From Acholeplasma sp. (GTDB taxonomy: Bacteria; Bacillota_I; Bacilli_A; Acholeplasmatales; UBA5453), in the NCBI GenBank assembly GCA_012839355.1, contig DUNK01000037.1:372-64371 (forward strand): a DNA stretch of 64,000 nucleotides, read 5' to 3'. A program made the position numbers and the translations under genes. Shown here one piece after another: positions 3,743 to 64,000 of the stretch (its first letter is position 1; every line of letters begins with the position of its first letter). Below the pieces are notes generated by a model. That model saw only the letters and a program-made list of their open reading frames with translations. It did no database searches and was not told the origin of the DNA.

Positions 3743-4290
3743 GCTTCTTCTTTTTTTTCTGTAAAGATATGCGGAAAATATGGGTAGATCATTATGCCTA
3801 CAAGTAACATAAATAGATAAGATAGAAAGTTGTACGGTAAATTATATAAGATAAACGAATAAAACCAAGCATTACTATCAGTAAAATCACTAAAGAATAT
3901 TACACCACTAACCGAATGCATTAAATATCTAATTAGAAATGCCAGAGTGATAGCGAAAATAAACTTTTTCACATCATTAAAGGCATTTTTCTTAAACACT
4001 GCAACTAAACCAACTAGTGTAAATGCTAAAAAGTAATCAAAGATTATTGATCCCCAGTGTATTACAAATCCATCTAACATAAAAACGACTATGCCAATAA
4101 TAAAACCAGAGATACATCCATATAAATATCCATGTCTTAAACTAGCGATAATTACTGGCAATAATACTAATGATATTCTCCCTCCTTGTGGCATTTGTAG
4201 GAGTGGGATTATTGCTGCGAATATTTCTAGTAATACGCCAATAACTGTTAAAACTGCTGTTTCTACTATTATGTATGTTTTCTTGTTCAT
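3739..4290 (-). CDS. thiT: Thiamine transporter ThiT (ECF S-component)
   Basis: About 183-aa polytopic membrane protein directly downstream of a TPP riboswitch. GGAGGG SD 5 nt before the ATG at 4290. The track start at 4323 is a TTG inside the riboswitch terminator. Confidence 0.8.
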   Translation of the reverse strand: MNKKTYIIVETAVLTVIGVLLEIFAAIIPLLQMPQGGRISLVLLPVIIASLRHGYLYGCISGFIIGIVVFMLDGFVIHWGSIIFDYFLAFTLVGLVAVFKKNAFNDVKKFIFAITLAFLIRYLMHSVSGVIFFSDFTDSNAWFYSFILYNLPYNFLSYLFMLLVGIMIYPYFPHIFTEKKEEA

Positions 4291-4302
4291 ATGTTCCCTC
4301 CA

Positions 4303-4436
4303 TAAAAAAATTCTTTCGGACAATACGCCAAAAGAATAATCTTAAAAAACACTTTTTACAATTCCTCCGCTGGCATTGTCCAGATCAGGTATATGGGTCG
4401 ATTTAACATCCTCTCAGCCGTAGCTCCCCAAGTAAA
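4303..4436 (-). promoter_or_regulatory. TPP (THI-box) riboswitch with intrinsic terminator
   Basis: Minus strand reads GGGGAGCUACGGCUGAGAGG...CGACCCAUAUACCUGAUCUGGACAAUGCCAGCGGAGGAA, which carries the conserved CUGAGA and ACCUGAUCUGGAUAAUGCCAGCG elements. It is followed by an AUUCUUU-N14-AAAGAAU hairpin plus U7 (4340..4303). Confidence 0.9.
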
Positions 4437-4477
4437 TGAATATTTAATTCATATAAATTATAACATATAAAAACTCT

Positions 4478-11481: not shown

Positions 11482-12771
11482 TTATTTAGACTTTTTTGGA
11501 TTAATTGTATAAGTAGTTATTACATCACTATTTATTTCTGCAGTTAATGAAAAAACATCTTCTAGTTTAACATCATTGATAATCTTTGGATATTCAAATA
11601 AATCAATACCATATGTTGCTATATCTAAATAGCCATAAGTTATACCTTCAACACTATTAATACTTTTAATAAAAGCACCTTGATTCATTCTTTTAATCAT
11701 TTTAAATCTTTCTTCATTGGCTTTTCTTCTTTTTAAGTTCTTTAGGGTTGTTTGTAAGGTGTTTAATAACACTTCAGGCTTTCTAGTATAACCTGCTATA
11801 TGAAACGATAAATAAGATTTATGTAAGTTAATATAATAGCTAAAACTTCTATTAATTAACTCTTGATCTAACAGTTTTTCATATATTTCACCACTATTAG
11901 AAAAATAATACTCTAACAACATACTTAATTTTAGTGCTTTAATATACTGTTCTCTTAAGTTTTTATTTTCTTCAAACTTAACGCTTAGACCGACTAACGG
12001 TATATTAACATTACCTTCTTCAGATTCTTCTGTTACTACCACTTTTTTAGGTTCATAAGGCTCAAACCTTTTGATGCTTCCGATATTTTTAAATGTTTTC
12101 TTTGCTTGATTATTTTGGATTAATTCTAAATATTCATCAACATCAAAATTACCAGTTACTATTAGTCTCATATTAGATGGATGATAGAAAGTATAATACG
12201 CATTATATAAATCTGTTTTAGTAATTCTTTTTATCTCTTCTTCTGTTCCAATAACATCTTTTTTTAAGTAACAATTTTTATATGTATTTTCTAGTAGTTT
12301 ATTGTAAATTCTCATGGTTGGTTCATCTAAATACATATTAATCTCTTCAGTGATAATTCCTTGTTCGGTTTTAACTATCTTATCAGTAAAATAAGGCATT
12401 TGAACATAATCAAGCAAGTATTCTAAGGCTTCAAGAAAGTTTTCTGTACCTCTAATTAAATAACCTGTTTTATCATGACTAGTAAAGGCATTAGAGTTAA
12501 TCCCCATATCATCAAATACTTGCATCGCATCAATACCACCTGGCATCTTAAATAAAACATGTTCTAAAAAGTGAGCAATACCTGAAGGTTGAATAACTTT
12601 ATTTTTCTTTCCTACTGGGATAAACGCTAAATCCATCCCACCAAAATTAGTTGAAAATACCGCAAATATTTTTTGAAAATCTCTTTTAGGAACTAAAATA
12701 ACTTCTAAACCATTACTTAATGTCTTCTTATAGACTATTTCATTATACTTTTTATATTCTTTAACTATCAT
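11482..12771 (-). CDS. M16-family zinc peptidase (active subunit, YmfH-like)
   Basis: HFLEH (HxxEH inverted zincin motif) at about residue 67. 429 aa. Start overlaps the upstream partner. Confidence 0.85.
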   Translation of the reverse strand: MIVKEYKKYNEIVYKKTLSNGLEVILVPKRDFQKIFAVFSTNFGGMDLAFIPVGKKNKVIQPSGIAHFLEHVLFKMPGGIDAMQVFDDMGINSNAFTSHDKTGYLIRGTENFLEALEYLLDYVQMPYFTDKIVKTEQGIITEEINMYLDEPTMRIYNKLLENTYKNCYLKKDVIGTEEEIKRITKTDLYNAYYTFYHPSNMRLIVTGNFDVDEYLELIQNNQAKKTFKNIGSIKRFEPYEPKKVVVTEESEEGNVNIPLVGLSVKFEENKNLREQYIKALKLSMLLEYYFSNSGEIYEKLLDQELINRSFSYYINLHKSYLSFHIAGYTRKPEVLLNTLQTTLKNLKRRKANEERFKMIKRMNQGAFIKSINSVEGITYGYLDIATYGIDLFEYPKIINDVKLEDVFSLTAEINSDVITTYTINPKKSK

Positions 12772-13979
12772 TCCTTAACCTCCGGTTCTAACATATAAAC
12801 TGTATCTATTTGAACCATCCGGGCCACAGTTAAAATATCTTCTTTTGTAACACTATTAATAACTTTTATCTTCTCTTCTCTTTTAGACTCTTTATTTAAC
12901 AACTTTTGAAGATAGATGTTATTCATCCATCTACCTTGACTATCTTCAAGTTCTTTTAAGTCATTGATAAAATATAATTTTGTTCTTTCTAACTCTTCAT
13001 CGCTGACTAAATTAGTTTGGAGGTCTTTTAACTGTTCATTTATAAGTTTTTTCGCAAGATTAACTTTCTTTTTAGGGACACCTGCATAAACGCATAAAAA
13101 ACCTTTATACGCATCATAACTTGATCTAACAGAGTAACATAAAGAGTGTTTTTCACGAACAATCATAAATAATCTTGAAGAAGAATATCCGCCAAAAATA
13201 GCGTTAAATAACACTGCGGCAGTATATAAATCGTCCTTATAATCAATAGGTAAATTATAACCGATATTTAATTTAACTTGATTGATATCGTCTTGTTCAA
13301 CTATTCGTTTAACTCCGTTAGTGTAGTGTGGTTCATCATCAATCGGATTATGATTATAGTTATTTCTACCTACAAAATATTTACTTATCATCTCTTTAGT
13401 TTTAGAATCAATATCCCCCGATATAACAACATCATAATCGTTATTATTAACCACATTAAAATAATACTCATTTAACTTTTCATATGTTATAGCACTTATA
13501 TCTTCTTTAGTGCTATTTGGTCTTATTGCGTATCTTTCACCTTTAAACATATTTTTAACCAATCTTTCTAAAGCAACATATGTTTTATCGTTTTCTAACT
13601 CTTCTAATCTTTCAAGTAATAAACTTTTTTCTAAGTCAAAATACTTTTTAGGTAACATCTTATGACCAAAAATTAAATCATTTAAAATCTTTAAACTTAA
13701 CTCAAAAAAACCTTCTTCCATATAAGAAGGATTTATAATGTTTAACGAAACATTTAAAACTGAAAGTTTACCAAGTATATAAGTTCTAGCAGAGACTCCA
13801 CTACCATATAAGTTTTCTAATGCTTCATTAAGTTTTTTTCTTGTATTATACAAAGAAGTTGCCGAACTCATCACAGCAGGTAATAAAGCTCTTAAGGCAA
13901 CATTTTCTTCTTTAATCTCTTCTTTAAAACGGATTGAGATAGTTACCGTTTTAAATTTCTTTGTGTTATTTATTATCAT
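12768..13979 (-). CDS. M16-family peptidase-like protein (non-catalytic partner, YmfF-like)
   Basis: 403 aa with insulinase-like layout but no HxxEH. Translationally coupled to the active M16 gene. Confidence 0.7.
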   Translation of the reverse strand: MIINNTKKFKTVTISIRFKEEIKEENVALRALLPAVMSSATSLYNTRKKLNEALENLYGSGVSARTYILGKLSVLNVSLNIINPSYMEEGFFELSLKILNDLIFGHKMLPKKYFDLEKSLLLERLEELENDKTYVALERLVKNMFKGERYAIRPNSTKEDISAITYEKLNEYYFNVVNNNDYDVVISGDIDSKTKEMISKYFVGRNNYNHNPIDDEPHYTNGVKRIVEQDDINQVKLNIGYNLPIDYKDDLYTAAVLFNAIFGGYSSSRLFMIVREKHSLCYSVRSSYDAYKGFLCVYAGVPKKKVNLAKKLINEQLKDLQTNLVSDEELERTKLYFINDLKELEDSQGRWMNNIYLQKLLNKESKREEKIKVINSVTKEDILTVARMVQIDTVYMLEPEVKE

Positions 13980-16236: not shown

Positions 16237-17028
16237 TTACTTACCACCCTTGTTATTAATTTTACCATATTTAAGATGTTCATTCAATTGTTGGCTAATG
16301 TCATTATTTAACTTTTGACTAAACTCTAATCTTGAACGATCTTCAAAAATTGGTGTAATCGAAATTATCCCATTTCTATAACAATAAACATCGCTATTCT
16401 CTTTTTCAGGAAGATTCATATTTTGATAAATTGCCATATATTTATTAAAACTTTTTCTAATAAATGCAGGCTTATATTTATGTTCTCCCTGAATAGTAAA
16501 CATAACTCCTTTTGGATCAATAAACGTATCCATCGGAAAATTGATATTTAATAAATAATCGCTACTCACTAAGTTATTATCTAAAAGAAACTTAACGAGC
16601 GCTGTTGTATATCTTTCAGACATTTGAAAGTCTCTATAAGGGCTGCTAAGCGCAATCGCTGGTATCCCTAAACTAGCAGCTTCTGATGCTGCACCAATTG
16701 TCCCAGAGCGCGAAACATCTGAACCTAAATTAGCACCTTGATTAATGCCTGATACAACTAAATCAAACTTAATTTTGTCGTAGAAAAACAGGCCTAATCT
16801 TAAACAATCAGCAGGTGTTCCTTTAACTGAATAGGCTCTAACCGCGCCATAAAGATTGCCATAGTTTTTCACTTTCATTTTCTTTCTAAGTGATAAAGCT
16901 TGGCTCATTCCGCTTTGGTGTTTTTCTGGTGCGAATATATAAACTTCACCAAGAGGTTTTAATTGTTCAACTAGTATTTTTAAACCTAATGACAAAATCC
17001 CATCATCATTAACTACTAGTATCTTCAT
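16237..17028 (-). CDS. surE: 5'/3'-nucleotidase SurE
   Basis: MKILVVNDDGI N-terminus and GINQGANLG motif. The start overlaps the ileS 3' end by 20 nt. Confidence 0.9.
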   Translation of the reverse strand: MKILVVNDDGILSLGLKILVEQLKPLGEVYIFAPEKHQSGMSQALSLRKKMKVKNYGNLYGAVRAYSVKGTPADCLRLGLFFYDKIKFDLVVSGINQGANLGSDVSRSGTIGAASEAASLGIPAIALSSPYRDFQMSERYTTALVKFLLDNNLVSSDYLLNINFPMDTFIDPKGVMFTIQGEHKYKPAFIRKSFNKYMAIYQNMNLPEKENSDVYCYRNGIISITPIFEDRSRLEFSQKLNNDISQQLNEHLKYGKINNKGGK

Positions 17029-19726
17029 ATTTCATTTCCTTTAAAACTTCCTCGCATCTTTCGCAAACGCTAATTGAATTTACTTTCTTAACTATATTCC
17101 AACAACGTTCACACTTGTGTCCTTCCGCCTCATAAGCTTCTACTTCTAGCGTTTCGCTTTCTTTAACATTTACTTCAGCAACCATTAAAATTAAAGGTAA
17201 ATCAACTTCTAACTTTTTAATTGATTCCATTAAATCTTTTGGTAGTCCTAAATTTAGGCCTGCCTCTAATGATTTACCGATAACATGTTCTTTTCTTAAC
17301 TCTTCAAGTTTTAATAAAACATCATTTCTTAATTCTAAGAACTTATCAAAATCTTCTAATAATTCTTTTTCCTTATAATGTTCAACATCAGTAAATCTTT
17401 CTAAGTAAACATCTTCTTTAGTCGCATAAGATAAATGCCAGTAAACTTCACTTGTTGTGTGTGGAATAATTGGATTTAACATCAATAATAGTTCATTTAA
17501 GTGATGATAAATAACTGTTTGCATCCCACGTCTTTTCGCACTATCTTGTGCATCAACATATAAAACATCTTTTGCATAATCTAAATAATACGCAGATAAA
17601 GCGTTAATGATATAGTTAGTAATTAATCTATTTACTACATCAAAACGGTAGTTATCATATGCATTAAAGACTTTTTCTTTTAATTCTTGTAGTTTAACTA
17701 ACATCATCTTATCAGTATTAATTAATTTTTCATAAGGAACTAGATTTTCTTTTGGACTAAAATCAAATAAGTTCGCTAACATAAATCTAAATGTGTTTCT
17801 TAACTTACGATAAGTCTCAGTCGCTAATTTAATCGTAGTTTGGCCGAGTTTAACATCGCTCGCATAATCAACTGTTGATACCCAAAGTCTTAAAATGTCT
17901 GCTCCATTTTCTTTCATTATCTTTAGTGGATCAATAACATTTCCTAAACTCTTACTCATAATTCTATTTTTCTCATCTAATACAAATCCATGAGAGATTA
18001 CAGCTTTATATGGACTCTTACCATTTACTGCAACTGAAGTTGTTAAACTTGAGTTAAACCAGCCGCGATATTGGTCACTTCCTTCTAAATATAAATCAGC
18101 AGGAAAATCTATACCATTTCTATTTAAAACTGTATAGCTTGTTCCTGAATCGAACCAAACATCCATAATATCCATTTCTTTTTTAAAGATGCCGTTTGGG
18201 CTACCTGGATGAGTATAGCCTTTAGGAAGTAAATCTTTCGCATCTCTAATAAACCAAGCGTTAGAGCCTTCTTTACCAAAGATTTTCGCAATATGTCTAA
18301 TAATATCAGCATCTAAAATGACTGATTCATCTTCAGCATAAAAGACAGGGATTGGTACACCCCAAACTCTTTGACGGCTAATACACCAATCATTACGATC
18401 CTTAATCATATTGCTAATTCTTAATTCTCCCCACTTTTGAATCCATTCCACTTTTTTAATTTCCGCAAGAATTTCTTCTTTAATCGGTTCAATACTCGCA
18501 AACCATTGTGGAGTAGCTTTAAACATAATTGGCTTTCTTGTTCGCCAGTCATGTGGATAACTATGCTTAATAAAATCAAGTTTTAACAATAAACCTTTGT
18601 TTTCTAACTGTTCAGTTATTAATGGATTAGCTTTCATATAAAACATCCCAGCATAATTTGGCGTATCAGCTGTATAATAACCGGCATCATCAATCGGAAC
18701 TAACACATCTAAATTATATTTTTTACCAACGATAAAGTCTTCTTCACCATGTCCAGGAGCTGTATGAACTAAACCTGTACCATCAACTACTGTCACGTGT
18801 TCACCTAAAATAACCGGTAAAATTTTCTCATCATACAAAGGGTGAACATACTTACTATATTCAAGAACTTCACCTTTATAAGTGTCAATAACTTGATAAT
18901 TCGTTATGTTTAATTCATTCATAACTTTCTCATGTAAATCTTTAGCCATAATTAAAATATCTTTATCAGTCTCCACTGATACATAATCATAATTAGGGTT
19001 AACACTAATTGCCAAGTTAGCAGGGAGTGTCCATGGAGTTGTAGTCCAAAAGACTAGCTTTTGACCTTTAAACTTACCTTCAACAACCGGCACTTGCACA
19101 GTAATTGATGGCGAAGTTACTTCTTCATAAATAATTTCTGCTTCCGCTAAGGCTGATTCGCTTGAAGGTGACCAGTAAACAGGTCTTAAACCTTTATAGA
19201 TTAAACCTCTTTCGACCATCTTCGCAAACACTAATAGTTGCGCTTCTTCAAACTCAGGTTGGAGAGTAATATAAGGTTTATCCCACTCACCTAAAATACC
19301 AATTCTCTTGAATTGTTCTTTTTGCGCATCAATTTGTTTGTTAGCGTATTTTTCGCATAATTTACGATAATCACTAACTAGCATAGTTTTATATGTTATA
19401 CCTTGCTTACTTAAAGCAGATTCAATCGGTAATCCGTGTGTATCCCAACCAGGAATATAGCGAGCATAAAAACCTTTTAGTGTTTTATATCTCACTACGA
19501 AGTCTTTTAAAATTTTATTTAAAGCGTGACCTATATGAATTGGACCATTGGCATATGGAGGTCCATCATGTAAAACGAAACTCTTATTCTTTTCGTTTAA
19601 TTTTAATCCTTTCTCATAAATCTTTAATTCTTCCCACTTAGCTATAATCTCAGGCTCTTTATTACCTAAATTACCTCTCATTGAAAATTCTGTTTTAGGA
19701 AGCAACAATGTATCTTTTAATTCCAT
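17009..19726 (-). CDS. ileS: Isoleucine--tRNA ligase
   Basis: 905 aa. HIGH motif (PYANGPIHIGHA), KMSKS (IMSKSLGN), C-terminal Cys4 zinc ribbon (CERCWN...CERC). Confidence 0.97.
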   Translation of the reverse strand: MELKDTLLLPKTEFSMRGNLGNKEPEIIAKWEELKIYEKGLKLNEKNKSFVLHDGPPYANGPIHIGHALNKILKDFVVRYKTLKGFYARYIPGWDTHGLPIESALSKQGITYKTMLVSDYRKLCEKYANKQIDAQKEQFKRIGILGEWDKPYITLQPEFEEAQLLVFAKMVERGLIYKGLRPVYWSPSSESALAEAEIIYEEVTSPSITVQVPVVEGKFKGQKLVFWTTTPWTLPANLAISVNPNYDYVSVETDKDILIMAKDLHEKVMNELNITNYQVIDTYKGEVLEYSKYVHPLYDEKILPVILGEHVTVVDGTGLVHTAPGHGEEDFIVGKKYNLDVLVPIDDAGYYTADTPNYAGMFYMKANPLITEQLENKGLLLKLDFIKHSYPHDWRTRKPIMFKATPQWFASIEPIKEEILAEIKKVEWIQKWGELRISNMIKDRNDWCISRQRVWGVPIPVFYAEDESVILDADIIRHIAKIFGKEGSNAWFIRDAKDLLPKGYTHPGSPNGIFKKEMDIMDVWFDSGTSYTVLNRNGIDFPADLYLEGSDQYRGWFNSSLTTSVAVNGKSPYKAVISHGFVLDEKNRIMSKSLGNVIDPLKIMKENGADILRLWVSTVDYASDVKLGQTTIKLATETYRKLRNTFRFMLANLFDFSPKENLVPYEKLINTDKMMLVKLQELKEKVFNAYDNYRFDVVNRLITNYIINALSAYYLDYAKDVLYVDAQDSAKRRGMQTVIYHHLNELLLMLNPIIPHTTSEVYWHLSYATKEDVYLERFTDVEHYKEKELLEDFDKFLELRNDVLLKLEELRKEHVIGKSLEAGLNLGLPKDLMESIKKLEVDLPLILMVAEVNVKESETLEVEAYEAEGHKCERCWNIVKKVNSISVCERCEEVLKEMKYEDTSS

Positions 19727-52190: not shown

Positions 52191-53084
52191 CTAAACACTT
52201 TCAAGAATTGGTAAAATTTTCTTTACATCTTCTTTATACCACTTAGGATATTTATTTGATTTTAATGTTTCTTTAATTAAATCATTATACTTTGTATTTT
52301 TCTGTCTAACTAACAATGTTAACGCATTTCTAAGTAAAAGTGTCCTACCTTTCCACAAATATGCATGTTTACCATACTTCTTTTGAAACTCTTTATTTGA
52401 TAGTTTAAAAAGATCTTCAATTAAAACATATGCTGTTTCTTTTACTTGTAAATCTTCATGGTATTTACCTTCGATATCTTTATTTTTTGGACATACCTGC
52501 TGACAAATATCACAGCCCAAAAGTAGATAGTTTTTCTTAATTAAATCTTCACCAAAAGGTTCTTTTAACTGATTGTTAGCACTCATACACTTATTAATAT
52601 CAAACCCACCTTCTAGTGCATTAACAGGGCAAGAATTAATACATATCATACAATCACCACATGAATCATTATTTTCTACTATCACTTCAGGATACTTATC
52701 TTTCGTTAAGATTAAACCTATAAAGAAATAACTACCTAACTCTTGATTAATCATTAAATCGTTTTTTGCTAGATAAGCCAAACCTGTTAACTCTAAACAT
52801 CTTCTTTCATCTAAACTATGATTATCAACTAAAATAGTATACTCATAACCTTTTAACGCTTCACTAGCAATCTTTTTTATAACACTATGATAATCATAAC
52901 CATATGTATAAATTGAACCAACTAACTTGTCATCTTGTTGTTTAAGTGTAATTTTAGGATAAGCTAATCCTACAACAAAAATTGAAGAAACATCTTTTAA
53001 GTGTTCTTCTTTTTCATAGTTATCATATCTAGTTTTATCAATTACGCCTACAAGGTTAAAAACCTTTTTTAATCTTTCATACAT
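52191..53084 (-). CDS. queG: Epoxyqueuosine reductase QueG-like (short form)
   Basis: Collinear with B. subtilis QueG as I remember it: GYDYHSV, GSYFFIGLILT, two ferredoxin motifs CGDCMICINSCP and CDICQQVCPKNK, SNKEFQKKYG..LWKGR..LLRNA. Only 297 aa, so it lacks the C-terminal HEAT-like extension. Confidence 0.75.
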   Translation of the reverse strand: MYERLKKVFNLVGVIDKTRYDNYEKEEHLKDVSSIFVVGLAYPKITLKQQDDKLVGSIYTYGYDYHSVIKKIASEALKGYEYTILVDNHSLDERRCLELTGLAYLAKNDLMINQELGSYFFIGLILTKDKYPEVIVENNDSCGDCMICINSCPVNALEGGFDINKCMSANNQLKEPFGEDLIKKNYLLLGCDICQQVCPKNKDIEGKYHEDLQVKETAYVLIEDLFKLSNKEFQKKYGKHAYLWKGRTLLLRNALTLLVRQKNTKYNDLIKETLKSNKYPKWYKEDVKKILPILESV

Positions 53085-54322: not shown

Positions 54323-54405
54323 TATATCTTCCTATCTATTTTTATACATAACCTCATATATAGTTTAGAACTATTTATGAGTATTGTCAAAAGAACATGT
54401 TAATT

Positions 54406-54431
54406 AAAAGAAAAAGTGTCGTTTGACACTT
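54406..54431 (-). terminator. Rho-independent terminator after the T-box / lyase / PPIase unit
   Basis: Minus strand AAGTGTC-AAAC-GACACTT hairpin followed by a T-rich run. Confidence 0.7.
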
Positions 54432-55256
54432 TTAAACATAAATTACTGCGCTTGGCTCATAGCCATTTAATTCAACTGTTACGCTTTCTATAACTACATT
54501 TGTTAAAGGTCTATCATTATAGTCTGTTTGTAGATTTGCGATTTGATCTAACACATCAAAACCACTGATTAAACCTCCAAATGAGGCGTAGTTACCATTT
54601 AGGTGTGGAGAAGTTTTATGAACGATGAAAAACTGACTTGTCGCACTATCAGGCACCATTGTTCGTGCCATAGAAATTACACCTCTATAATGTCTTAAGT
54701 TATTAGTAACTCCATTACTGCTAAAATCTCCTTTAATATTTCCATAAGGAACTCCAACATGACCACCCTGAATCATAAAGTCTTTAATTACTCTATGAAA
54801 ACTAGAACCAGTATACTTATTATTTTCTACATATTTTAAGAAATTATTAACCGTGTTTGGTGCCACCTCAGGAAAGAGTTCCAGTTTCATCTCACCAAAA
54901 TTCAACACTTTAATTGTAACTACTGGGTTATTCTCACTTAAATAACTATAATATTTTAACTCTGCCAACTTATCTTCCCACCTTGCAACTAAATTTAGAT
55001 TTTTATTAACTTTTGAACTAAAATTATATGGTTGATCATTTAAATACCATCCAAGGAAATTGTACCCTTCTTTTGTTGGTTCAGTAGGTTCGGTAACCAA
55101 CTCACCTTTTTTGAGTGTTTGAGCGGGGGCTTCTCCTACTCCTTCATTTAAATCAAATGTGATAGTATATGTTTTCTTTCCACAAGAAACTAATGTTAAT
55201 AATAAAACAAATATTGTAATTATATTTAATATCTTTTTATCCATTTTACATTCCAT
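54432..55256 (-). CDS. Surface lipoprotein: Listeria-Bacteroides (Flg_new) repeat plus a cyclophilin-type peptidyl-prolyl isomerase
   Basis: Lipobox LTLVSC. YTITFDLNEG...GYNFLGWY repeat. Cyclophilin signature FHRVIKDFMIQGG. The ATG at 55256 overlaps the lyase stop (TAATG); alternative ATG at 55244. Confidence 0.85.
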   Translation of the reverse strand: MECKMDKKILNIITIFVLLLTLVSCGKKTYTITFDLNEGVGEAPAQTLKKGELVTEPTEPTKEGYNFLGWYLNDQPYNFSSKVNKNLNLVARWEDKLAELKYYSYLSENNPVVTIKVLNFGEMKLELFPEVAPNTVNNFLKYVENNKYTGSSFHRVIKDFMIQGGHVGVPYGNIKGDFSSNGVTNNLRHYRGVISMARTMVPDSATSQFFIVHKTSPHLNGNYASFGGLISGFDVLDQIANLQTDYNDRPLTNVVIESVTVELNGYEPSAVIYV

Positions 55257-56704
55257 TAGTATTTATTTAGAAAATCTTCTTTAAATTTTTTAACTAATTT
55301 TTCTTGCCAATTTGATGTTGGTGCTAATTCACCAAAGAAAAATCTTAACGTTTCTGGTTCTCTTGTAAATTTCAAACCACCGATTAAATCTCTATTCTTA
55401 TAGAGCCAAATAATTCTATCAACTGCATAATTGATATGTGAAAGTGTAAATACTCTTCTTGGAATCGCAAGTCTAACAAGTTCCATATCAGCTAACTTTT
55501 CAGTTCCATCAGGATTTCTCACTTCTGATAATGTTCCTCTTTCCATCCCTCTAATACCACTAACAATATAGAGTGCTGTAGCTAAAGCACCTGCAGGGTA
55601 TTCTTCTTGTTTAATATGAGGAACGAAACTTCTTGCATCTAAGTGACAACCAAGACCACCACCAGGCGTTACGACTGGAACTTTATGTTTTACTAATTCA
55701 TTAACCATATAATCAATAAAGATTGGCCCTTGACTAATAACATCAAATTCCATTGATTCTTCTAAACCAACAGCAATCATTTCCATTTCTCTTGTGCTCA
55801 TGCCGCCATAAGTTAAGAATCCTTCATACATTACTACAAACTCTTTCATTTTATTGTAGAGTTTTTCATCTTTTAAGACTATTCCGCCACCTTTTGCAAA
55901 CCCAAACTTTCGCGCTGAGAAATAAACTATATCAAACAACTGACAAAACTCTTTAGTTATTTCACTAATCGGTTTATTTTCAAATCCTTTTTCTCTAACT
56001 TTAATAAAATATAAGTTATCTTGCAGTAAACTAGCATCTAAAACAGTCATAACTCCTGCTTTTTTACATCTTTCAGTAACTGCTTTAGCATTTTCAAAAC
56101 TAATTGGTTGACCACCAATTAAATTAGTTCCCGCCTCAATTCTTAAAAAGGCGATTTCTTCTTTACTATATTTTTTAAAATAGTCATCTAATTTCTTTAA
56201 ATCTACATTGCCCTTAAATGGATAATCACTTTGGATCTTTAAACCTTCATCAATAATTAATTCATCTACAATTCCGCCCATAGCGAGAATGTGAGATTTA
56301 GTCGTTGTAAAGTGATAGTTCATCGGCGTTCTTGTATTAGGTTTAACTAGCGCTCTACTAATAATATGCTCACAAGCACGGCCTTGGTGAGCAGGTAAAA
56401 AGTAAGGTAAACCTAAAAGGCTTGTTACAGCTTTTTCTAAACGATAAAACGTCTTACTGCCAGCATACGCTTCATCAGCACGCATTGAGGCAGCTAACTG
56501 TTCATCACTTGAAGCGTTCACGCCACTATCAGTTAACATATCTAAAAACACATCTTCATTTCTTAATAAAAATGTATTGTTAGTTGCTTTAGTGATTGCC
56601 TTATACCTTTCATCTACATCTAACAAATTTATTTTTGAAACAACCTTTGGTTTATGTAACTCTAATGGTTGTTCCTTTAAATACTTCATCTCAATTCTTT
56701 TCAT
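55256..56704 (-). CDS. Beta-eliminating lyase, tyrosine phenol-lyase-like (TPL/tryptophanase family, PLP-dependent)
   Basis: Collinear with C. freundii TPL as I remember it: NTFLL..D.F.D.LTDSG.NA.SD, DEAYAGS, HQGR, NYHFTTT, GGQP, FENK.I.EI, PLP-lysine context FSARKFG, YEG...YGG, LDAR, RLAIPRRV, LRFF. 482 aa. Confidence 0.85.
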   Translation of the reverse strand: MKRIEMKYLKEQPLELHKPKVVSKINLLDVDERYKAITKATNNTFLLRNEDVFLDMLTDSGVNASSDEQLAASMRADEAYAGSKTFYRLEKAVTSLLGLPYFLPAHQGRACEHIISRALVKPNTRTPMNYHFTTTKSHILAMGGIVDELIIDEGLKIQSDYPFKGNVDLKKLDDYFKKYSKEEIAFLRIEAGTNLIGGQPISFENAKAVTERCKKAGVMTVLDASLLQDNLYFIKVREKGFENKPISEITKEFCQLFDIVYFSARKFGFAKGGGIVLKDEKLYNKMKEFVVMYEGFLTYGGMSTREMEMIAVGLEESMEFDVISQGPIFIDYMVNELVKHKVPVVTPGGGLGCHLDARSFVPHIKQEEYPAGALATALYIVSGIRGMERGTLSEVRNPDGTEKLADMELVRLAIPRRVFTLSHINYAVDRIIWLYKNRDLIGGLKFTREPETLRFFFGELAPTSNWQEKLVKKFKEDFLNKY

Positions 56705-56730
56705 ATTAATCTCTCCTAACTCTTTATAAT

Positions 56731-56945
56731 AAAAAAAGATTCATCCGTTAAGGACGAATCTAAAAATAGACCGTGGTACCACCTTAATTCACTACTATTG
56801 TAGCCTCAAATTAGTTTTAACTGGACTAGACCAGGATACGCTCCTATAAATGTAACTTGTAAATCTTTTTTGAAATACTTCCACCAAATGTATTCTCTCT
56901 GTTCATTGAAAAAGAAATACTCTTTTTTATAATCATTGCCTATCA
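56731..56945 (-). promoter_or_regulatory. T-box riboswitch, apparent Tyr specifier (UAC)
   Basis: Minus strand features: K-turn (GAUAGGC / AAU bulge / GA ... GA / GCGUAUC); specifier-loop 5' side AGAGUA; AG bulge AGAGA; distal loop GGUGGAA; UAC-A immediately before the closing helix UUUAUAG (UAC at 56852-56854); T-box core AAGGUGGUACCACGG (56771-56785); 10-bp terminator AGAUUCGUCC/GGAUGAAUCU plus U7 (to 56731). Confidence 0.85.
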
Positions 56946-56966
56946 GATTAATTTTTAATTACTACT

Positions 56967-56995
56967 ATAATACTATTAAAAAACTTTTTTCGCAA
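56967..56995 (-). promoter_or_regulatory. Sigma-A promoter of the T-box/lyase unit
   Basis: Minus strand TTGCGA (56995..56990), N17, TATTAT (56972..56967). Confidence 0.55.
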
Positions 56996-57036: not shown

Positions 57037-60000
57037 TTATTCTACCTCTTTTAACATCTTTCTAATCTTTCTTAATTCTTTATTAGCGTCAATATACCAA
57101 TTATTAGAAAAGACACGATAAACATTCCAACCACGAGCTTTTAAATACTTTTCTTGGTGAAGTAAGTTTCTTCTTGCAGTTACATTAGTATCATTAACAA
57201 TATCGCAAATAATACCTAACTTATACTCTTTTTCTTCTTCATCATAAATTGCTAAATCAATATAATGTTCACCAGCACCAATAGAAGTATGAACATTGTA
57301 TTTTAAACCTTCTAAACGTTTCTTAATATCAAGTGCTAACTCTTCAGTTAAAGCTCTTTGCGTCTCTTCTTCTTTAGAGTGTAATTCTTGTAAGACTAAC
57401 TTCGCTAAATCTTTCTTGCCGTTAGAAATGAAATAACAATACCTCATAAAATCTTTTAAAAGTTTTGGTCCTGCGCCTTGTAAATCTTCGACCTTAAATT
57501 CTTCAGGATACAAAGATGAAACAAAATAGATTTTCTTCTTCGCACGCGTTACCGCAACGTTAAGTCTGTTTTGACCACCTTCATGGTTTAACCAGCCAAA
57601 TCTTCTTTTTACAGTTCCTGTTTTATCTTTCGCATAACCCATTGAAAAAATGATAATATCTCTTTCATCACCTTGAACATTTTCAATGTTTTTAATGAAT
57701 AAACTTTTATCTTCATTATCTTCAGTTCTCATTAATTCTTCTTCAAACTGGCGTTGATATGTGCCTTTTTTAAAGATTTCTTTATCGATATGATTTTCAA
57801 TTAAATCTCTTTGCGCACTATTAAAAGTAATGACGCCAATCGTTTCATTATTTTTACGAGTTCTAAAAATCTTCTTAATTATCTTAACAACTTCTTTTGC
57901 TTCTTCAACATTTTGTCTATTATGGAAAATACCTTCTTCCACATGTACATATTCAATCGGTGGTTTAGGACTTTCTTTTTGGTTAGGTGAAACGATTAAT
58001 TTACCATCATAAAAAGCATAATTAGAAAAAGAAATTAACTCTTCATAATTAGATCTATAGTGATAGTTTAATAGCGTTTCTTTATATTTATATCTCGCTA
58101 AGTCTAATAAACTTTTCGCATCTAATGAAACATCTTGTAAGATTTCTTCTTCAAAGAGTTCATCTTCATTATCAATTCTCCCAAAACCTAAGCTTGATGG
58201 TCTTAACTGTTTTGGATCCCCTGCTATTACAACCTTTTTCGCACGATAAATTGAAGGGATTCCCTTTTCAACATACATCTGTGATGCTTCATCAAATATA
58301 ACTAAATCAAAAAGTCCGTGCTCTAAAGGAATTAACGAACTAACAACCTCAGGAGTCATCATCCAAATTTTAATACTTTCAAATAACTCTGGTTGAAAGT
58401 GATTAATAAACTCATTAACAGATGGTTTTTTAGCTGCTTCTAATATACGCTTGATATCCATAATTCTTTTCGCATTAGAAAAGTTTAATGCTTGTTTGTA
58501 TAACTCCATCTCAAACGACTCAGTCGTTATTAATATCTTCTCAGCAACTAACGCTTCTAAACGTTCTTTCGTATCTTGATATTCATCAATCACACTTAAA
58601 TCTTCTTGGTGGAGAGCTTTAAACTCTTCTAAATAACCTGTGTAATAAGCCCTAAACAAATATTCTCTAAACTTGGAAATATCAATTATATCTTTTACTA
58701 ATTCATCTTCAGTAAGCATATTTAAGTATTTAATTTCTAATTTGTTTAATTCTAAATATGACGCTTCTAATTTAGGTAATCTATTTATATTTTCTAAAAG
58801 ATAATTATTTACTCTTGCATCCTTAAGTAATAACTTTAAATACTTCTTCTCATATCTTCCTTTTTGAGCGAAATATAATAGTTTACCTTTATTCATTTTT
58901 AAGAAAATTTTTCTTAACTGAATCTTTCTAAACAAACCTGAAGTATTATAATCTTCAACAAACTCTAAATATCCTTCACTAAACTTCTTAAATTCTATCT
59001 TAGAACTTCTAGTTAATTTCTTTTCAAACCTTTTTACAACTGGATATCTACTAACTATCTTATGATATTCTAAATATTTTTTTAATTCACTATTACTATC
59101 AAATTTATCTTCTAACCCTTTTAAATCACTATAACTTAAGTTCCCAAAGTGTCTATTAAACATTTCATAAACACTTTTAGGTGTTAACTCTTCGTTTACT
59201 TCTCTATCTTTTAAATACTTATTTAGTAATTCAGAAACATTAAACCCATCAACTTCACCAAAGAGTAAATTAATAGTTCTATCTAATGTGTTAAGGAGTT
59301 CGGTAATCTCCGCCTCTGATTGATAGCGATCATTATTGATAGTCCTAATTGGTGGTGTTGGATCAATAAAATTACTAAGCATATTGTAGAAGTTAGTTTT
59401 ATTTTCAGCATCATCTAAAAACATCGCGTATTTTGATGCGTTTTTGAGCCTTGAATAGATAACATCTAAAGCCGCTCTTTTCTCACTGACAACTAAGACA
59501 TTTTCTTTGTTTAAAATGGCATTCGCAATTAGGCTTGTGATAGTCTGACTTTTGCCTGTTCCAGGCGGACCAAAAATAACAAGTTTTTGTTCCTTGTTTA
59601 ATAAATCAATAACATTTTCTTGCGAGTCATTTAATTCGTTTATATATGTAATACTATCTTCATTTATCTTACTTTTATCTACCGCAAAAACAACTTCTTT
59701 TTCTTTTTTATATAAGTTTTCTTCATCAATTAAACCTTCCAATAATTCATTATATTTATTACTTTCAATAATCGCATTCATATCTTTTTGAATCATTGAT
59801 GAATAAGGTTTATATCTTCCTAAAACAAGATATTGTCTAAGTTCAAAGTTACGATATTTTCTTCTTTCAAACTGAGCTTTTAATAAACTTTCAAACATTT
59901 CAAACTCAAACTTTTTAAATTTATCGTGGAGCGCCACACCATTTTTTTCATAATAATCAAACACTTCATCAGTCAAAGTGTGACGACTAAAACTTTCCAC

Positions 60001-60729
60001 AAACGGATCTTTTTCCTTTAATGATTCTTTATCAAGTTTAGAAATCATTAAGAGTAAATCGTTATTATAAATGATATCTTTTTTATCATCTTTTTGAAGA
60101 TAAAAATTTCTTCTGCTTCTTTTTAACGCCACCGGAAAAAACAGTAGTGGCGCCTTTATCGGAAACTTTTCCTTTCTTAAATATCCTTCAATATAAGGAT
60201 AAGCAATATATAAATTATAAGCTCCCGTTTCCTTTAATTCTTTATTAACATTTCGATATAAATTCGTTAAGTCTTTAAATCTTCTTTCGTTTGGAAGTTC
60301 AAAATTATACCGTCTTGTTTTTTTGTTTGTGAGAAAGTCAATTAGATTTTCATCATCTTCTAACGTTGCCAAATCAAAGTTTCTTAACTTTTCAATTCTT
60401 CCCATATAAAGGTTCTGGTTATTTTTAGAAAGGTTAGTAAGTCTATCCTTATAATTATTTAAAACTTTATATGCTTTTTTAGATACCTTTACTTCTTTTA
60501 TCTTCTTAGAACGATAATTATTAATGACTTCTAAAAAGTCTTTTGAGTAGTCTTTAATAAAATCTTTATCAATCCCTGGAACAGCTAAAAAATCATTAGT
60601 TTTGAGTGGCATTTTGTTTACCATCTCAACTAACGCCTCGTCATTACAAATAAATGCATTTTCATTCTCAGCTCTTAACTGATCTCGTAACGTTAAAAGT
60701 TCTTCTAAAAACTCATTTTTGTATAACAA
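57037..60729 (-). CDS. Large SF1B (Upf1/DNA2-like, AAA_11/AAA_12) helicase with an N-terminal HRDC-like domain and a C-terminal Vsr/DUF559-like endonuclease-fold domain
   Basis: 1230 aa. HRDC-like N-terminus (LRDQLRAENENAFICNDEALVEMVNKMPLKTNDFLAVPGI). Walker A GPPGTGKSQT, motif II FDEASQM, GDPKQLRP, QGDERD, LNVAVTRAKKK. C-terminal ...YIDLAIYDEEE..YKLGIICD......ARRNLLHQEKYLKARGWNVYRVFSNNWY. TTG start with GGGAGA SD and its own TATAAT (60802-60807 region). Confidence 0.8.
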   Translation of the reverse strand: MLYKNEFLEELLTLRDQLRAENENAFICNDEALVEMVNKMPLKTNDFLAVPGIDKDFIKDYSKDFLEVINNYRSKKIKEVKVSKKAYKVLNNYKDRLTNLSKNNQNLYMGRIEKLRNFDLATLEDDENLIDFLTNKKTRRYNFELPNERRFKDLTNLYRNVNKELKETGAYNLYIAYPYIEGYLRKEKFPIKAPLLFFPVALKRSRRNFYLQKDDKKDIIYNNDLLLMISKLDKESLKEKDPFVESFSRHTLTDEVFDYYEKNGVALHDKFKKFEFEMFESLLKAQFERRKYRNFELRQYLVLGRYKPYSSMIQKDMNAIIESNKYNELLEGLIDEENLYKKEKEVVFAVDKSKINEDSITYINELNDSQENVIDLLNKEQKLVIFGPPGTGKSQTITSLIANAILNKENVLVVSEKRAALDVIYSRLKNASKYAMFLDDAENKTNFYNMLSNFIDPTPPIRTINNDRYQSEAEITELLNTLDRTINLLFGEVDGFNVSELLNKYLKDREVNEELTPKSVYEMFNRHFGNLSYSDLKGLEDKFDSNSELKKYLEYHKIVSRYPVVKRFEKKLTRSSKIEFKKFSEGYLEFVEDYNTSGLFRKIQLRKIFLKMNKGKLLYFAQKGRYEKKYLKLLLKDARVNNYLLENINRLPKLEASYLELNKLEIKYLNMLTEDELVKDIIDISKFREYLFRAYYTGYLEEFKALHQEDLSVIDEYQDTKERLEALVAEKILITTESFEMELYKQALNFSNAKRIMDIKRILEAAKKPSVNEFINHFQPELFESIKIWMMTPEVVSSLIPLEHGLFDLVIFDEASQMYVEKGIPSIYRAKKVVIAGDPKQLRPSSLGFGRIDNEDELFEEEILQDVSLDAKSLLDLARYKYKETLLNYHYRSNYEELISFSNYAFYDGKLIVSPNQKESPKPPIEYVHVEEGIFHNRQNVEEAKEVVKIIKKIFRTRKNNETIGVITFNSAQRDLIENHIDKEIFKKGTYQRQFEEELMRTEDNEDKSLFIKNIENVQGDERDIIIFSMGYAKDKTGTVKRRFGWLNHEGGQNRLNVAVTRAKKKIYFVSSLYPEEFKVEDLQGAGPKLLKDFMRYCYFISNGKKDLAKLVLQELHSKEEETQRALTEELALDIKKRLEGLKYNVHTSIGAGEHYIDLAIYDEEEKEYKLGIICDIVNDTNVTARRNLLHQEKYLKARGWNVYRVFSNNWYIDANKELRKIRKMLKEVE

Positions 60730-61298: not shown

Positions 61299-64000
61299 TT
61301 ACTCGTCTTTTTCAAATACTATTTCTGGAAAAAGCGCTAAGTATTCTTCTTCTTTTTCGCGGTTATACCAATAGACAATTTGATTTGCTGAGATACTCGT
61401 AATTTTATATTCTAAATCTTCTCTACTCTTTATTAGGTCTTTGGCTTTTTTAGAAAACTGGACAACTTTTTTCCCATCATGAGTTACATACCCATTTTCT
61501 ATTTTTAACTCATCACCAGGAAGCGCCTTCCTAACATTATATCTACTAAACTCAAAGTATCCTAAGAAAACATCAGAATATCCAAGTCTATAAACAAACC
61601 TCTTTGGCTCCTTAATTTCTTTATCATATTCAACAATTCTCAAGTTTTCTATTCTATCAACATAGTTAAATATTTTATGGTTTGTATGAATATTTAAATT
61701 ATCCTTGGCTCTAGTTATACCAACATAGAGGACTCTTAAATCTGCATCTTCAAGATATTCAGTTGAATCATAATAAATGAATACATTATTAAACTCTTTC
61801 CCTTTAGCCTTATGAAGTGTTGAAACAACAAAAGGTGCTTCAATATAGAAATCATCTAGGTTAGTTTCAAGTAAATACTCTTTGAAATCACTAATAAAGA
61901 CATCAACACCTGCGGTTTGTTTGAATTTATTTAATATTTTTCTGTATAGTTCATAGTCTTTAACTGTTTTATATCTCCCAGCAAAATTCTTAAATGTTTC
62001 TATCCAAATTTTATCCGTTATTTGGGTATTAAGATTTTTTGCTTTATACTCTAAAAGATTATAAAACTCTCTGATTTCATAAACATTGAAGGCTTTAACA
62101 TTATCAGTTGCTTGAATTAACTCCGCCCTTCTTTCTTTTTTGTTTAATATGCCTGTTATTTGTAAAGCTTCTTCATTTGTTAAAGTAAGAATGGCTGTTG
62201 TTCCTCTTAATTTACTATTTAATATATCTTCAATAAACGGCATGATAAATCTTTGTCCGTTATACTTGGTTACTTTAATATGGCCTAACTCTTTTCGATG
62301 TGGGCGAATTTCTTTTTTCTTTAATCTATTTTTAATTAGTGAAGCAACTTTATTAGAAAAATCAATTAAGTTCTTTTTAGCTCTAAAATTTATGCCAAGT
62401 TCATAAAAGGCTTTATCTTTTTCGGCAAACATTCTAAAGTATTTTGAGTCAGCTCCTCTAAACTCAAAAATGTTTTGATCATCATCACCAACCGCAACAA
62501 CTCTTAAGTTTTCATTATAATCAATTAGAGCCTTAACTAACTCGTATTCTTCTACATTCATATCTTGTGCCTCATCAATAACTAAAATCATTTTAGTTGC
62601 GATTGCAGGCTCAACTTCACGACTTTTTATCTTTTCCGTAGCCGCTTTAATTACACTATCAGTCTCCATAAGATTACCAACTTTTCCTAGCACATCAAAA
62701 GCAAACGAATGAAAAGTTCTTATATTGATATAATAAGCACTTGAACCAATTAAATCTGCTAGTTTTTCTTTAAAGTCTGTCGCAGCAACACGAGAAAAAG
62801 TCAACATTAAAAGTTGTTCAGACCTGATATCTTCGTTATATAAAATTGAAACTAATTTGTGAACTAATACTCTCGTTTTACCTGAACCAGGACCAGCCGC
62901 TACAGCAATAGTTTCATTATCTTTATCTTTAATTACCGCTAATTGTTCATCTGTAAGTTCACTGAAAAGTTCATTAAACCTAATTACACTCATATTAAGA
63001 TTTAATTGTTCTTTCTTCTCGCCTGGGAAATATTTTTTAATAAATTCTTGATAATTCATTAAAAAGTAATCTTGAACTAACTCTAAAGCTTTTTCTTTAT
63101 TTTCATACATAATATTTGCAAACTCGCCAACGATATGGATTTGTTGTTTCCTGTTTTCATAAAATGTTTCTAAATTTTGATAATCTTCTTTAGTAAACAT
63201 CTTTCTAGGATTTAACTCCGTTTTAGTTATATCTAAACGGTGATATAAAACAAAGAACCCACCTTCAATTTGTAAAACTTTTATGTTTTGTAAGTAAAAG
63301 AGTCTATCTTCAATGTCTTTCATATTTACTTTAAATTGCAACAATTGATTTCTTCTATTGAATTCTTTTACTAACTCCATAATAGAAAAATAAACCATGT
63401 TTTTATTCTTTTCAACAATTTTTTCTTTAACATTATACAAATATTCAATAATGAATTCATTCACTATAGTTTGCTTGCTAAATTTATCTAAATAGGCTTC
63501 GCCTTCTTCATATAATTTAATAATAAAATTATCTCTTGATTGTTTATCAACATCTATAATATTAGCCCTATCTAAATAACTAATTGCTCGTTTAACATCT
63601 TTAAGTTCACATTTAACATTGTTTTCGTCTAATTGTTGATAGATGTTTTTAACATTATAAAGAGCCCTTTCTGTTGTAAAAAGATTGAAAAGATGGTTAA
63701 TTATTTTCTCATAAAGTCTTACTTTTCTTATTGGACCTATATGTGTTGTACCATCAACAATTTCTGCTACTAAATCTTTATCATCGCGTAAAACATTAAT
63801 TTCTCTTAATTTACGAACAATACCAATTACCTCTTCAGTGGTTAAACCTAATAAATCTGCGATATAATCAACCCTTGATTCTGCAATATCGACATCGCTA
63901 GATTTTATATTTTTTTCTGTTATTAAAAGTTGCATTACTCTTTTAGCATTCATTACTTCTTTTTCTGCAAACATGTTTGACTTATCTATTCGTTCATTTG
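61299..64000 (-). CDS. UvrD/Rep-type SF1A helicase with a long winged-helix-rich N-terminal region; 5' end probably off-window
   Basis: AAGPGSGKTRVLVHK (motif I), VIDEAQDMN (II), VGDDDQNIFEFRGA (III), TLHKAKGKEFNNVF and YVGITRAKDNL (V/VI). The reading frame upstream of the ATG at 63974 stays open to the window edge (…NERIDKSN-M…), so the protein may be longer than 891 aa. Confidence 0.8.
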   Translation of the reverse strand, partial: NERIDKSNMFAEKEVMNAKRVMQLLITEKNIKSSDVDIAESRVDYIADLLGLTTEEVIGIVRKLREINVLRDDKDLVAEIVDGTTHIGPIRKVRLYEKIINHLFNLFTTERALYNVKNIYQQLDENNVKCELKDVKRAISYLDRANIIDVDKQSRDNFIIKLYEEGEAYLDKFSKQTIVNEFIIEYLYNVKEKIVEKNKNMVYFSIMELVKEFNRRNQLLQFKVNMKDIEDRLFYLQNIKVLQIEGGFFVLYHRLDITKTELNPRKMFTKEDYQNLETFYENRKQQIHIVGEFANIMYENKEKALELVQDYFLMNYQEFIKKYFPGEKKEQLNLNMSVIRFNELFSELTDEQLAVIKDKDNETIAVAAGPGSGKTRVLVHKLVSILYNEDIRSEQLLMLTFSRVAATDFKEKLADLIGSSAYYINIRTFHSFAFDVLGKVGNLMETDSVIKAATEKIKSREVEPAIATKMILVIDEAQDMNVEEYELVKALIDYNENLRVVAVGDDDQNIFEFRGADSKYFRMFAEKDKAFYELGINFRAKKNLIDFSNKVASLIKNRLKKKEIRPHRKELGHIKVTKYNGQRFIMPFIEDILNSKLRGTTAILTLTNEEALQITGILNKKERRAELIQATDNVKAFNVYEIREFYNLLEYKAKNLNTQITDKIWIETFKNFAGRYKTVKDYELYRKILNKFKQTAGVDVFISDFKEYLLETNLDDFYIEAPFVVSTLHKAKGKEFNNVFIYYDSTEYLEDADLRVLYVGITRAKDNLNIHTNHKIFNYVDRIENLRIVEYDKEIKEPKRFVYRLGYSDVFLGYFEFSRYNVRKALPGDELKIENGYVTHDGKKVVQFSKKAKDLIKSREDLEYKITSISANQIVYWYNREKEEEYLALFPEIVFEKDE

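Follow-up and report, generated by a model that had tools for sequence, protein, structure and literature searches.

A tyrosine-specifying T-box leader upstream of a tyrosine phenol-lyase-like gene in Acholeplasma and its recurrence across the lyase clade

The classical tyrosine phenol-lyase (TPL) gene, tpl, is induced 18-fold by L-tyrosine via TyrR (PMC10170061). What role, then, might be played by a TPL-like enzyme whose gene lies behind a conserved T-box leader specifying tyrosine, an arrangement indicating that the enzyme is wanted when tyrosine runs out, opposite to textbook tpl? The question is raised by a 64-kb stretch of DNA (the window) from an uncultured Acholeplasma or Acholeplasmatales bacterium, common in biogas-fermenter metagenomes, whose genome measures 1.16 Mb or more. 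Here, a T-box leader precedes an open reading frame (ORF) for a 482-amino-acid (aa) lyase dependent on pyridoxal 5′-phosphate (PLP), which together with its homologs of nearly the same length forms what we call the 482-aa clade. We found that the leader contains the RNA elements of a T-box with a tyrosine specifier, that the same wiring is conserved upstream of other members of the clade, and that the enzyme has a TPL-type substrate pocket. That a tyrosine-specific T-box controls the lyase gene is nearly certain; the explanation as a whole, in which a transcription-attenuating tRNA-Tyr T-box governs a bicistronic lyase-cyclophilin unit and the lyase supplies tyrosine, is one that we hold with moderate confidence.

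When the window was searched with the Rfam covariance model (CM) RF00230, a 199-nt match (56945 to 56747 of the reverse strand, model positions 1 to 219) was obtained upstream of the lyase gene with a score of 70.7 bits and an E value of 2.6e-13; the E value was 2e-15 in a 501-nt search. The gathering score of this family is 93 bits, and both T-boxes of the window, i.e., this leader and a second one upstream of ileS, need a permissive threshold. A scan of the window at the gathering threshold returned no T-box and only a thiamine pyrophosphate (TPP) riboswitch, and default Rfam annotation would miss both T-boxes. A preliminary description of the locus had credited the leader with every T-box element. 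This was correct for the K-turn, specifier, AG bulge, distal loop, core, and terminator (Table 1), with AGUA on the 5′ side of the specifier loop, but not for Stem II: a 27-nt block of the model is skipped in the CM alignment, leaving just a IIA-like hairpin. The ileS leader (19938 to 19768, reverse strand; 88.2 bits, also below gathering) has the identical deletion and is also devoid of the IIA/B region. Because neither T-box of the window has Stem II, the reduced architecture looks like a lineage trait; it is kept in five Acholeplasmatales-like relatives, and the leaders of more distant relatives are of the full type. T-boxes of the glyQS type function without Stem II, so this element is not essential.

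The 3′ part of the leader has the two competing folds of a transcription attenuator. Folded alone, positions 56790 to 56747 adopted the canonical antiterminator topology of a helix, a 7-nt UGGUACC bulge, and a second helix, at −8.6 kcal/mol, whereas the terminator (56761 to 56737 plus U7) reached −13.1 kcal/mol with a z score of −5.2, and 0 of 200 shuffled sequences were equally stable. The two structures have the AGAUUCGUCC strand in common, the terminator being the more stable. The minimum free energy fold of the whole leader, with a z score of only −1.2, was uninformative for Stem I, and RNAalifold applied to Stem I recovered the distal helix only; the lower helix, whose length varies among lineages, was hence analyzed per sequence. 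A sigma-70-like promoter is suitably placed, immediately 5′ of where the T-box begins; this AT-rich region shows no enrichment of promoter-like sites, and the site is weak evidence when taken alone.

The CM assigned UAC, a tyrosine codon, to the specifier slot of the window leader, where it is followed by a purine and the closing helix (UAC-A-UUUAUAG). Because the CM posterior at this position was just 0.5 to 0.6, homologous leaders were sought. The material comprised 80 loci from a genome-collection scan with protein alignment, 35 from a metagenome scan, and three closer relatives (74 to 78% protein identity). A T-box was present upstream of the lyase in 17 of the genome loci, all from Bacillota or Mollicutes-like organisms and all carrying GGUGGUACC(A/G)CG just 5′ of the lyase gene, and in 5 of the metagenome loci; with the window and the three closer relatives, this gave 26 leaders. 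All 22 leaders that were scored matched RF00230 over its full length, 18 of them above the gathering score (94 to 154 bits). Both the UAC specifier and the UGGU core, which the preliminary description had proposed for the window leader, are invariant in the 26 leaders, and the base after UAC is a purine in 23 of these, the exceptions being L001 (U) and L087 and L089 (C). In all 16 relatives whose alignments were inspected, the CM likewise put UAC in the specifier slot, and the high-scoring ones align UAC-A at posterior ‘*’. The closing helix starts exactly one base 3′ of UAC in 14 of 18 aligned leaders and is maintained by compensatory changes (GGAG/CUCC, AGGG/CCCU, GGGG/CCCC, GAAG/CUUC, AAAG/CUUU, and UUAUAAA/UUUAUAG), while in the distal helix five of five pairs show compensatory double changes. 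The two leaders with a C after the specifier (L087, 1134 to 1387, and L089, 1133 to 1386; GAA-UAC-C-UCUG) are Tyr T-boxes scoring 118 to 119 bits.

The UGGU core predicts a tRNA with discriminator base A73. Bacterial tRNA-Tyr has A73, and tRNA-Trp has G73. Two controls support the rule by which the specifier was read. For the ileS leader, which the preliminary description had used as its internal control, the RF00230 alignment gave AUC-A in the specifier slot, and the ORF behind it (17009 to 19726, reverse strand) was confirmed as isoleucyl-tRNA synthetase (TIGR00392, 962 bits against a cutoff of 621). The other control is a fermentation metagenome contig (L101; UOOH01001011, 1175 to 4398) that carries a tandem pair of T-box modules: one, with UAC and UGGU, precedes the lyase, and the second, with UGG and UGGC (Trp), precedes trpB (TIGR00263, 533 bits), which directly follows the lyase and is the first gene behind the second leader, the locus ending at 4398. 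In the Trp T-box, the specifier loop reads AAA-UGG-A followed by a CCGC helix, and the core, GGUGGCACC, predicts G73. Few clues to gene function that can be drawn from sequence alone are as reliable as a T-box specifier.

Lyases linked to a T-box are dispersed over the whole tree of the clade, occupying at least nine positions, and have leaders of both the full and the reduced architecture, which argues against the wiring being a peculiarity of a single genome. In most T-box loci the lyase is the sole gene behind the leader, and we take the lyase itself to be the regulated target. Clustering of the neighborhoods (834 ORFs from 81 loci) gave no conserved partner gene, and the proteobacterial and isolate loci inspected gave no functional clue, in part because of noisy ORF calling in high-GC DNA. 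The loci come from biogas fermenters, termite guts, and rumen-type samples. In one T-box-bearing locus (L024, 4981 to 6750), the lyase ORF is 589 aa long, extended at the C terminus by about 107 aa, possibly by fusion, read-through, or an assembly error.

What enzyme is placed under this control? The lyase matches the family model PF01212 (Beta_elim_lyase) with 144.9 bits against a cutoff of 27 and the NF009709/PRK13238 ‘tryptophanase’ subfamily with 557 bits against 285, but remains below the cutoffs of the TPL equivalog TIGR02618 (435.9 against 720.7 bits) and of the TnaA models TIGR02617 (339 against 826 bits) and NF053783 (396 against 750 bits). Compared to proteins in the PDB, it scored about 370 bits with TPLs and 265 to 314 bits with tryptophanases; it is about 40% identical to TPL of Citrobacter freundii and 36% to TnaA of Escherichia coli, and the same search found no member of the 482-aa clade among solved structures. 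The clade accounts for more than 8,000 scored matches, nearly all of 479 to 482 aa and 60 to 79% identical to the query, from Bacillota, Spirochaetes, Proteobacteria, and Actinobacteria. Most of these, and likewise the window protein in NCBI, are named ‘tryptophanase’. Clustering at 50% identity collapses the clade to essentially one representative, and in a rough neighbor-joining tree it forms a lineage separate from canonical TPL.

Residues are numbered here as in C. freundii TPL, with the window residue in parentheses. The lyase retains Lys257 (K266), Tyr71 (Y80), Arg381 (R389), Thr124 (T133), Phe448/449 (F455/F456), Met379 (M387), Arg404 (R411), Arg100 (R109), Asn185 (N194), and Asp214 (D223), all invariant in the clade, as is Phe123; the roles in TPL of Lys257, Tyr71, Arg381, Thr124, and Phe448/449 have been described (PMC10170061). 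The motifs HFTTTK, SARK, and LRFFFG, pointed out in the preliminary description, were all found in the ORF. The pocket is of the TPL type throughout the clade, with Thr124, Met379, Arg381, and Phe448 where TnaA has Asp137, Val394, Ile396, and His463; Phe449 occurs in both. In contrast, Arg217, Lys256, and His343, which are common to TPL and TnaA, are replaced by L226, R265, and L351, with H354 nearby, and these replacements are also invariant in the clade. Met288 of TPL is Phe in the clade, as in TnaA. The clade has a one-residue deletion behind the PLP lysine, and its C terminus is longer by a conserved stretch of about 25 aa. In the AlphaFold2 model (mean predicted local distance difference test score [pLDDT], 88.4; predicted template modeling score, 0.89), this extension is predicted to be ordered, with a strand and a helix at 459 to 477 (pLDDT of about 95) directly after the Phe-Phe pair. 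The model superimposes best on TPL, with template modeling (TM) scores of 0.89 and 0.94, and its top 15 PDB matches are all TPLs (TM scores of 0.86 to 0.89 by query and 0.91 to 0.94 by target).

Compared to the TPLs of C. freundii and Erwinia herbicola (EC 4.1.99.2; PDB 2EZ1 and 1C7G), the lyase thus has the same fold, PLP lysine, and phenol-ring and catalytic residues, and differs in Arg217Leu, Lys256Arg, His343Leu, Met288Phe, the one-residue deletion, and the C-terminal extension. TnaA shares the superfamily and the fold, but the lyase has Thr, Arg, and Phe in place of three TnaA signature residues (Asp137, Ile396, and His463, respectively); together with the score on TIGR02617, this makes it very unlikely that the lyase is a tryptophanase, and the database name is probably wrong about the substrate. 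Judged by its residues, the lyase is TPL-like in substrate recognition and stands outside the characterized TPL equivalog. The TPL-like enzyme of the preliminary description is upheld to this extent by the pocket and the PDB scores, and it is not a canonical TPL.

In the wider family, two sister lineages of the 482-aa clade, P0138 and P0127, show the same signature of L/M217 and R256. Positions 124, 381, and 448 are still Thr, Arg, and Phe in P0127; in P0138 they are Asp, Met, and Ile, which suggests a substrate of neither the phenol nor the classic indole type. Other family members (P0122 to P0125, P0128 to P0130, P0141, and P0166) include proteins of about 900 aa, built from two lyase-like halves in tandem, as well as fusions of 1552 and 3002 aa.

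These observations suggest the following mechanism, which is modeled on the established T-box scheme. The AG-bulge/distal-loop platform of Stem I would dock the elbow of the tRNA, and the UAC specifier would pair with the anticodon GUA (or QUA). With uncharged tRNA-Tyr, the free 3′ ACCA end would pair with UGGU in the 7-nt bulge and stabilize the antiterminator, allowing RNA polymerase to enter the lyase gene; charged tRNA-Tyr would give no such stabilization, and the stronger terminator would form. Such tRNA-responsive read-through would have the lyase expressed when tyrosine is limiting. The leader resembles that of Bacillus subtilis tyrS, the founding Tyr T-box of RF00230, in its UAC followed by a purine, its UGGN bulge, and its competing terminator, but it controls a TPL-like lyase instead of a synthetase, is devoid of Stem II, and contains an imperfect S-turn. 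In the classical setting, TyrR and CRP mediate the activation of tpl by tyrosine, whereas the window lyase appears to be wired for induction by lack of tyrosine.

Induction by tyrosine shortage, together with an active site suited to a 4-hydroxyphenyl group, points to a role of the lyase in supplying tyrosine from phenol, which we consider slightly the likelier account of its function. Two routes are conceivable: the reverse reaction, in which phenol, pyruvate, and NH4+ would yield tyrosine, and β-replacement, in which tyrosine would be formed from phenol and serine or cysteine. TPL catalyzes β-replacement, and its reverse reaction has a kcat 1.5 times that of the forward one (PMC10170061). 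Finding the same wiring in diverse lineages strengthens the case for use in the synthetic direction, which we nonetheless infer. Whether the entire 482-aa clade would be a dedicated tyrosine synthase, joining phenol from the environment to serine, or to pyruvate and ammonia, is in our estimate evenly balanced. Phenol and ammonium are present in habitats such as biogas fermenters, termite guts, and rumen-type environments.

Two known systems are instructive here. The Trp T-box upstream of trpB offers an analogy, since TrpB likewise uses PLP, couples an aromatic ring (indole) to a three-carbon amino acid skeleton, and is switched on with the uncharged cognate tRNA; however, the fold type of TrpB is unrelated to that of TPL, and its biosynthetic role is established, whereas that of the lyase is inferred. 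Phenylalanine-4-hydroxylase of the Bacillus cereus group is an earlier example of an enzyme that forms tyrosine independently of the shikimate pathway and is under T-box control (PMC2494555), although it is a different enzyme that hydroxylates phenylalanine and has a narrow taxonomic range. Neither the text nor the supplements of the 2008 survey by Wels (PMC2494555) list a T-box-controlled TPL or tryptophanase gene. Our literature search turned up only engineering papers on phenol-dependent tyrosine auxotrophy and found no clade member as a characterized enzyme. The leader RNA is a new member of a known family, RF00230, and the enzyme clade that it regulates is uncharacterized and probably misannotated.

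T-box-controlled synthesis of tyrosine from phenol would be new physiology. If the lyase does supply tyrosine, the TPL fold would have a new physiological role, that of making tyrosine, and a widespread annotation would be corrected, the pocket being phenol-type and not indole-type. Anaerobic Bacillota and Acholeplasmatales would then possess a shikimate-independent, T-box-controlled route to tyrosine, a counterpart of indole salvage by TrpB. Phenol, normally seen as a uremic toxin or process inhibitor, would become a cross-fed nutrient in guts and digesters and not only a waste product or toxin, with a phenol-to-tyrosine link to be added to models of carbon and nitrogen cross-feeding. The enzymes would also offer a scaffold naturally tuned to synthesis for L-tyrosine, L-DOPA, and related compounds.

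Several points weigh against tyrosine supply by a tRNA-Tyr-controlled lyase. The score of the window leader falls below the gathering score, mainly because Stem II is deleted and the 3′ S-turn is imperfect, reading CAAG where the consensus is GAA. A tRNA-Tyr gene, looked for as a check on A73, was found neither in the window nor in any of the 19 scanned loci. A T-box is missing from about two thirds of the clade members in Bacillota and from all members outside Bacillota, and some hosts are aromatic-degrading Proteobacteria, for which a catabolic role is plausible. In the reverse reaction, characterized TPL has Km values of 12 mM for pyruvate, 20 mM for NH3, and 1.1 mM for phenol (PMC10170061), so net synthesis at natural phenol levels is not guaranteed. 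The literature search found no paper linking a T-box with TPL, tryptophanase, or tnaA, and an earlier listing in Vitreschak 2008 or Gutierrez-Preciado 2009 is possible. Finally, because Arg217, Lys256, and His343 are replaced, the chemistry of the clade may differ from that of TPL.

This last point leads to the alternative that survives best, although it too is unlikely, namely, that the lyase serves tyrosine supply by a different activity: it might be a ‘tyrosine synthase’ capable only of β-replacement on O- or S-substituted amino acids, or it might release tyrosine from a conjugate. Such an activity could explain why L226, R265, L351 with H354, and the C-terminal strand and helix, all absent from TPL and TnaA, are invariant in the clade, and it would agree with a score far under the TPL equivalog cutoff and a separate lineage in the tree. 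It has to be reconciled with the retention of every residue known for phenol-ring and α-proton chemistry. This alternative is a refinement of the tyrosine-supply explanation more than a competitor to it.

Less likely still, and in our view rather improbable, is an ordinary catabolic TPL for which the T-box has another rationale. The leader could be a relic, or the enzyme could remove tyrosine analogues: m-tyrosine and halogenated or hydroxylated tyrosines would block tyrosyl-tRNA synthetase and so raise uncharged tRNA-Tyr. The TPL-type pocket, the acceptance by TPL of many ring-substituted tyrosines, and the clade members of Proteobacteria and many Bacillota that have no T-box all fit a catabolic enzyme. 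Yet destroying a scarce amino acid would be counterproductive, a relic would hardly be conserved, intact and with covariation, across 26 loci of very different lineages, and no T-box-controlled catabolic enzyme was found in the Wels 2008 survey or the literature searched.

A tRNA other than tRNA-Tyr would be implied if the specifier were read in the +1 register, as ACA, ACU, or ACG (Thr), which we regard as highly improbable. ACN is a threonine codon in all 18 leaders of the alignment (A4), and the low CM posterior near the window codon leaves room for such a shift. In 14 of these 18, however, the codon would run into the covarying closing helix that begins one base after UAC, and on this geometry the register was rejected; the firm placement of UAC-A in the high-scoring relatives agrees. 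Moreover, the third base would vary in a threonine reading, with ACC in L087 and L089 (UAC-C), whereas UAC is invariant. T-box specifiers favor codons ending in C. Chance resemblance, or a tryptophanase without special regulation, as the score below gathering and the NCBI name might suggest, is extremely improbable and was refuted by the E value of 2.6e-13, the 18 related leaders above gathering, the replaced TnaA signature residues, and the TIGR02617 score.

How far the controlled transcript extends can be read from the sequence behind the lyase. The lyase stop codon overlaps the start codon of a lipoprotein gene (TAATG), and the product has a Listeria-Bacteroides repeat and a cyclophilin-type peptidyl-prolyl isomerase (PPIase) domain behind an LVSC lipobox. 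The translationally coupled cyclophilin lipoprotein of the preliminary description is borne out as to overlap, domains, and lipobox, but not as a feature of the system: it occurs only in contigs of this species and in no other T-box locus, including relatives at 71 to 78% lyase identity, in which different genes, or one in convergent orientation, lie downstream of the lyase. The cyclophilin lipoprotein is a species-specific passenger on the transcript and was rejected as part of the system. A terminator follows the PPIase gene, and the downstream major facilitator superfamily (MFS) gene has a promoter-like site of its own, so the controlled unit consists of the lyase and cyclophilin genes; the MFS gene was rejected as part of the system because of the terminator in between.

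Table 1. Positions of the features of the T-box operon and its flanks in the window
Feature	Position	Strand	Basis
Sigma-70-like promoter, TTGCGA-17-TATTAT	56967..56995	-	Consensus scan, 9/12 matches
T-box leader, reduced type (Stem I, IIA/B-like hairpin, Stem III, antiterminator, no Stem II)	56747..56945	-	RF00230
Stem I, lower helix UUAUAAA/UUUAUAG	56844..56937	-	CM alignment, duplex analysis
K-turn, UGA	56935-56933	-	CM alignment
AG bulge, AGAGA	56900-56896	-	CM alignment
Distal loop, GGUGGAA	56885-56879	-	CM alignment
Specifier UAC, then A56851, then closing helix UUUAUAG	56852..56854	-	CM specifier slot
T-box core AAGGUGGUACCACGG (UGGU, 56781-56778)	56771..56785	-	CM posterior ‘*’ over whole core
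Antiterminator, helix A1/7-nt bulge/helix A2	56748..56787	-	Stand-alone fold
Intrinsic terminator, 10-bp stem, 5-nt loop, U7	56730..56761	-	Terminator scan and fold
PLP-dependent β-eliminating lyase, 482 aa, TPL-like clade; ribosome-binding site AGGAG, 56717-56713	55256..56704	-	PF01212
Lipoprotein, 274 aa, Listeria-Bacteroides repeat and cyclophilin PPIase	54432..55256	-	PF09479, PF00160; LVSC lipobox read from sequence
Terminator ending the T-box-controlled transcript, 9-bp stem and T-run, directly after the PPIase stop	54412..54433	-	Terminator scan
Promoter-like site of downstream MFS gene, TTGACA-17-TAAACT	54390..54362	-	Consensus scan

Two genes downstream of the operon lies a gene for a QueG-like epoxyqueuosine reductase (52191 to 53084, reverse strand; Fer4_16 with a weak DUF1730 match). 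The wobble base of tRNA-Tyr, like that of some other tRNAs, is a site of queuosine modification, and it is this base that reads the C of the specifier; the proximity of this gene to the Tyr T-box operon is probably a coincidence. Upstream of the leader are two very large helicase/nuclease genes (57037 to 60729 and 61299 to 63974, both on the reverse strand), one encoding HRDC, DUF4011, AAA_11/AAA_12, and MTES_1575 endonuclease domains and the other a UvrD-like protein of about 1590 aa. Both are syntenic in related Acholeplasmatales contigs (L131 and L132) and possibly form a defense or repair module. Farther away, a gene of the YfmH family (408 bits, exceeding the cutoff) and, next to it, a gene for an M16-type peptidase-like protein occupy 11482 to 13979 of the reverse strand; these families are associated with the 5-aminopentanol modification of elongation factor P and are unexpected in a small, Mollicutes-like genome. 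The TPP riboswitch (4344 to 4440, reverse strand; 60.8 bits, exceeding the gathering score) precedes a gene for a ThiT/YuaJ-type thiamine transporter S-component (3739 to 4323, reverse strand), an ordinary arrangement.

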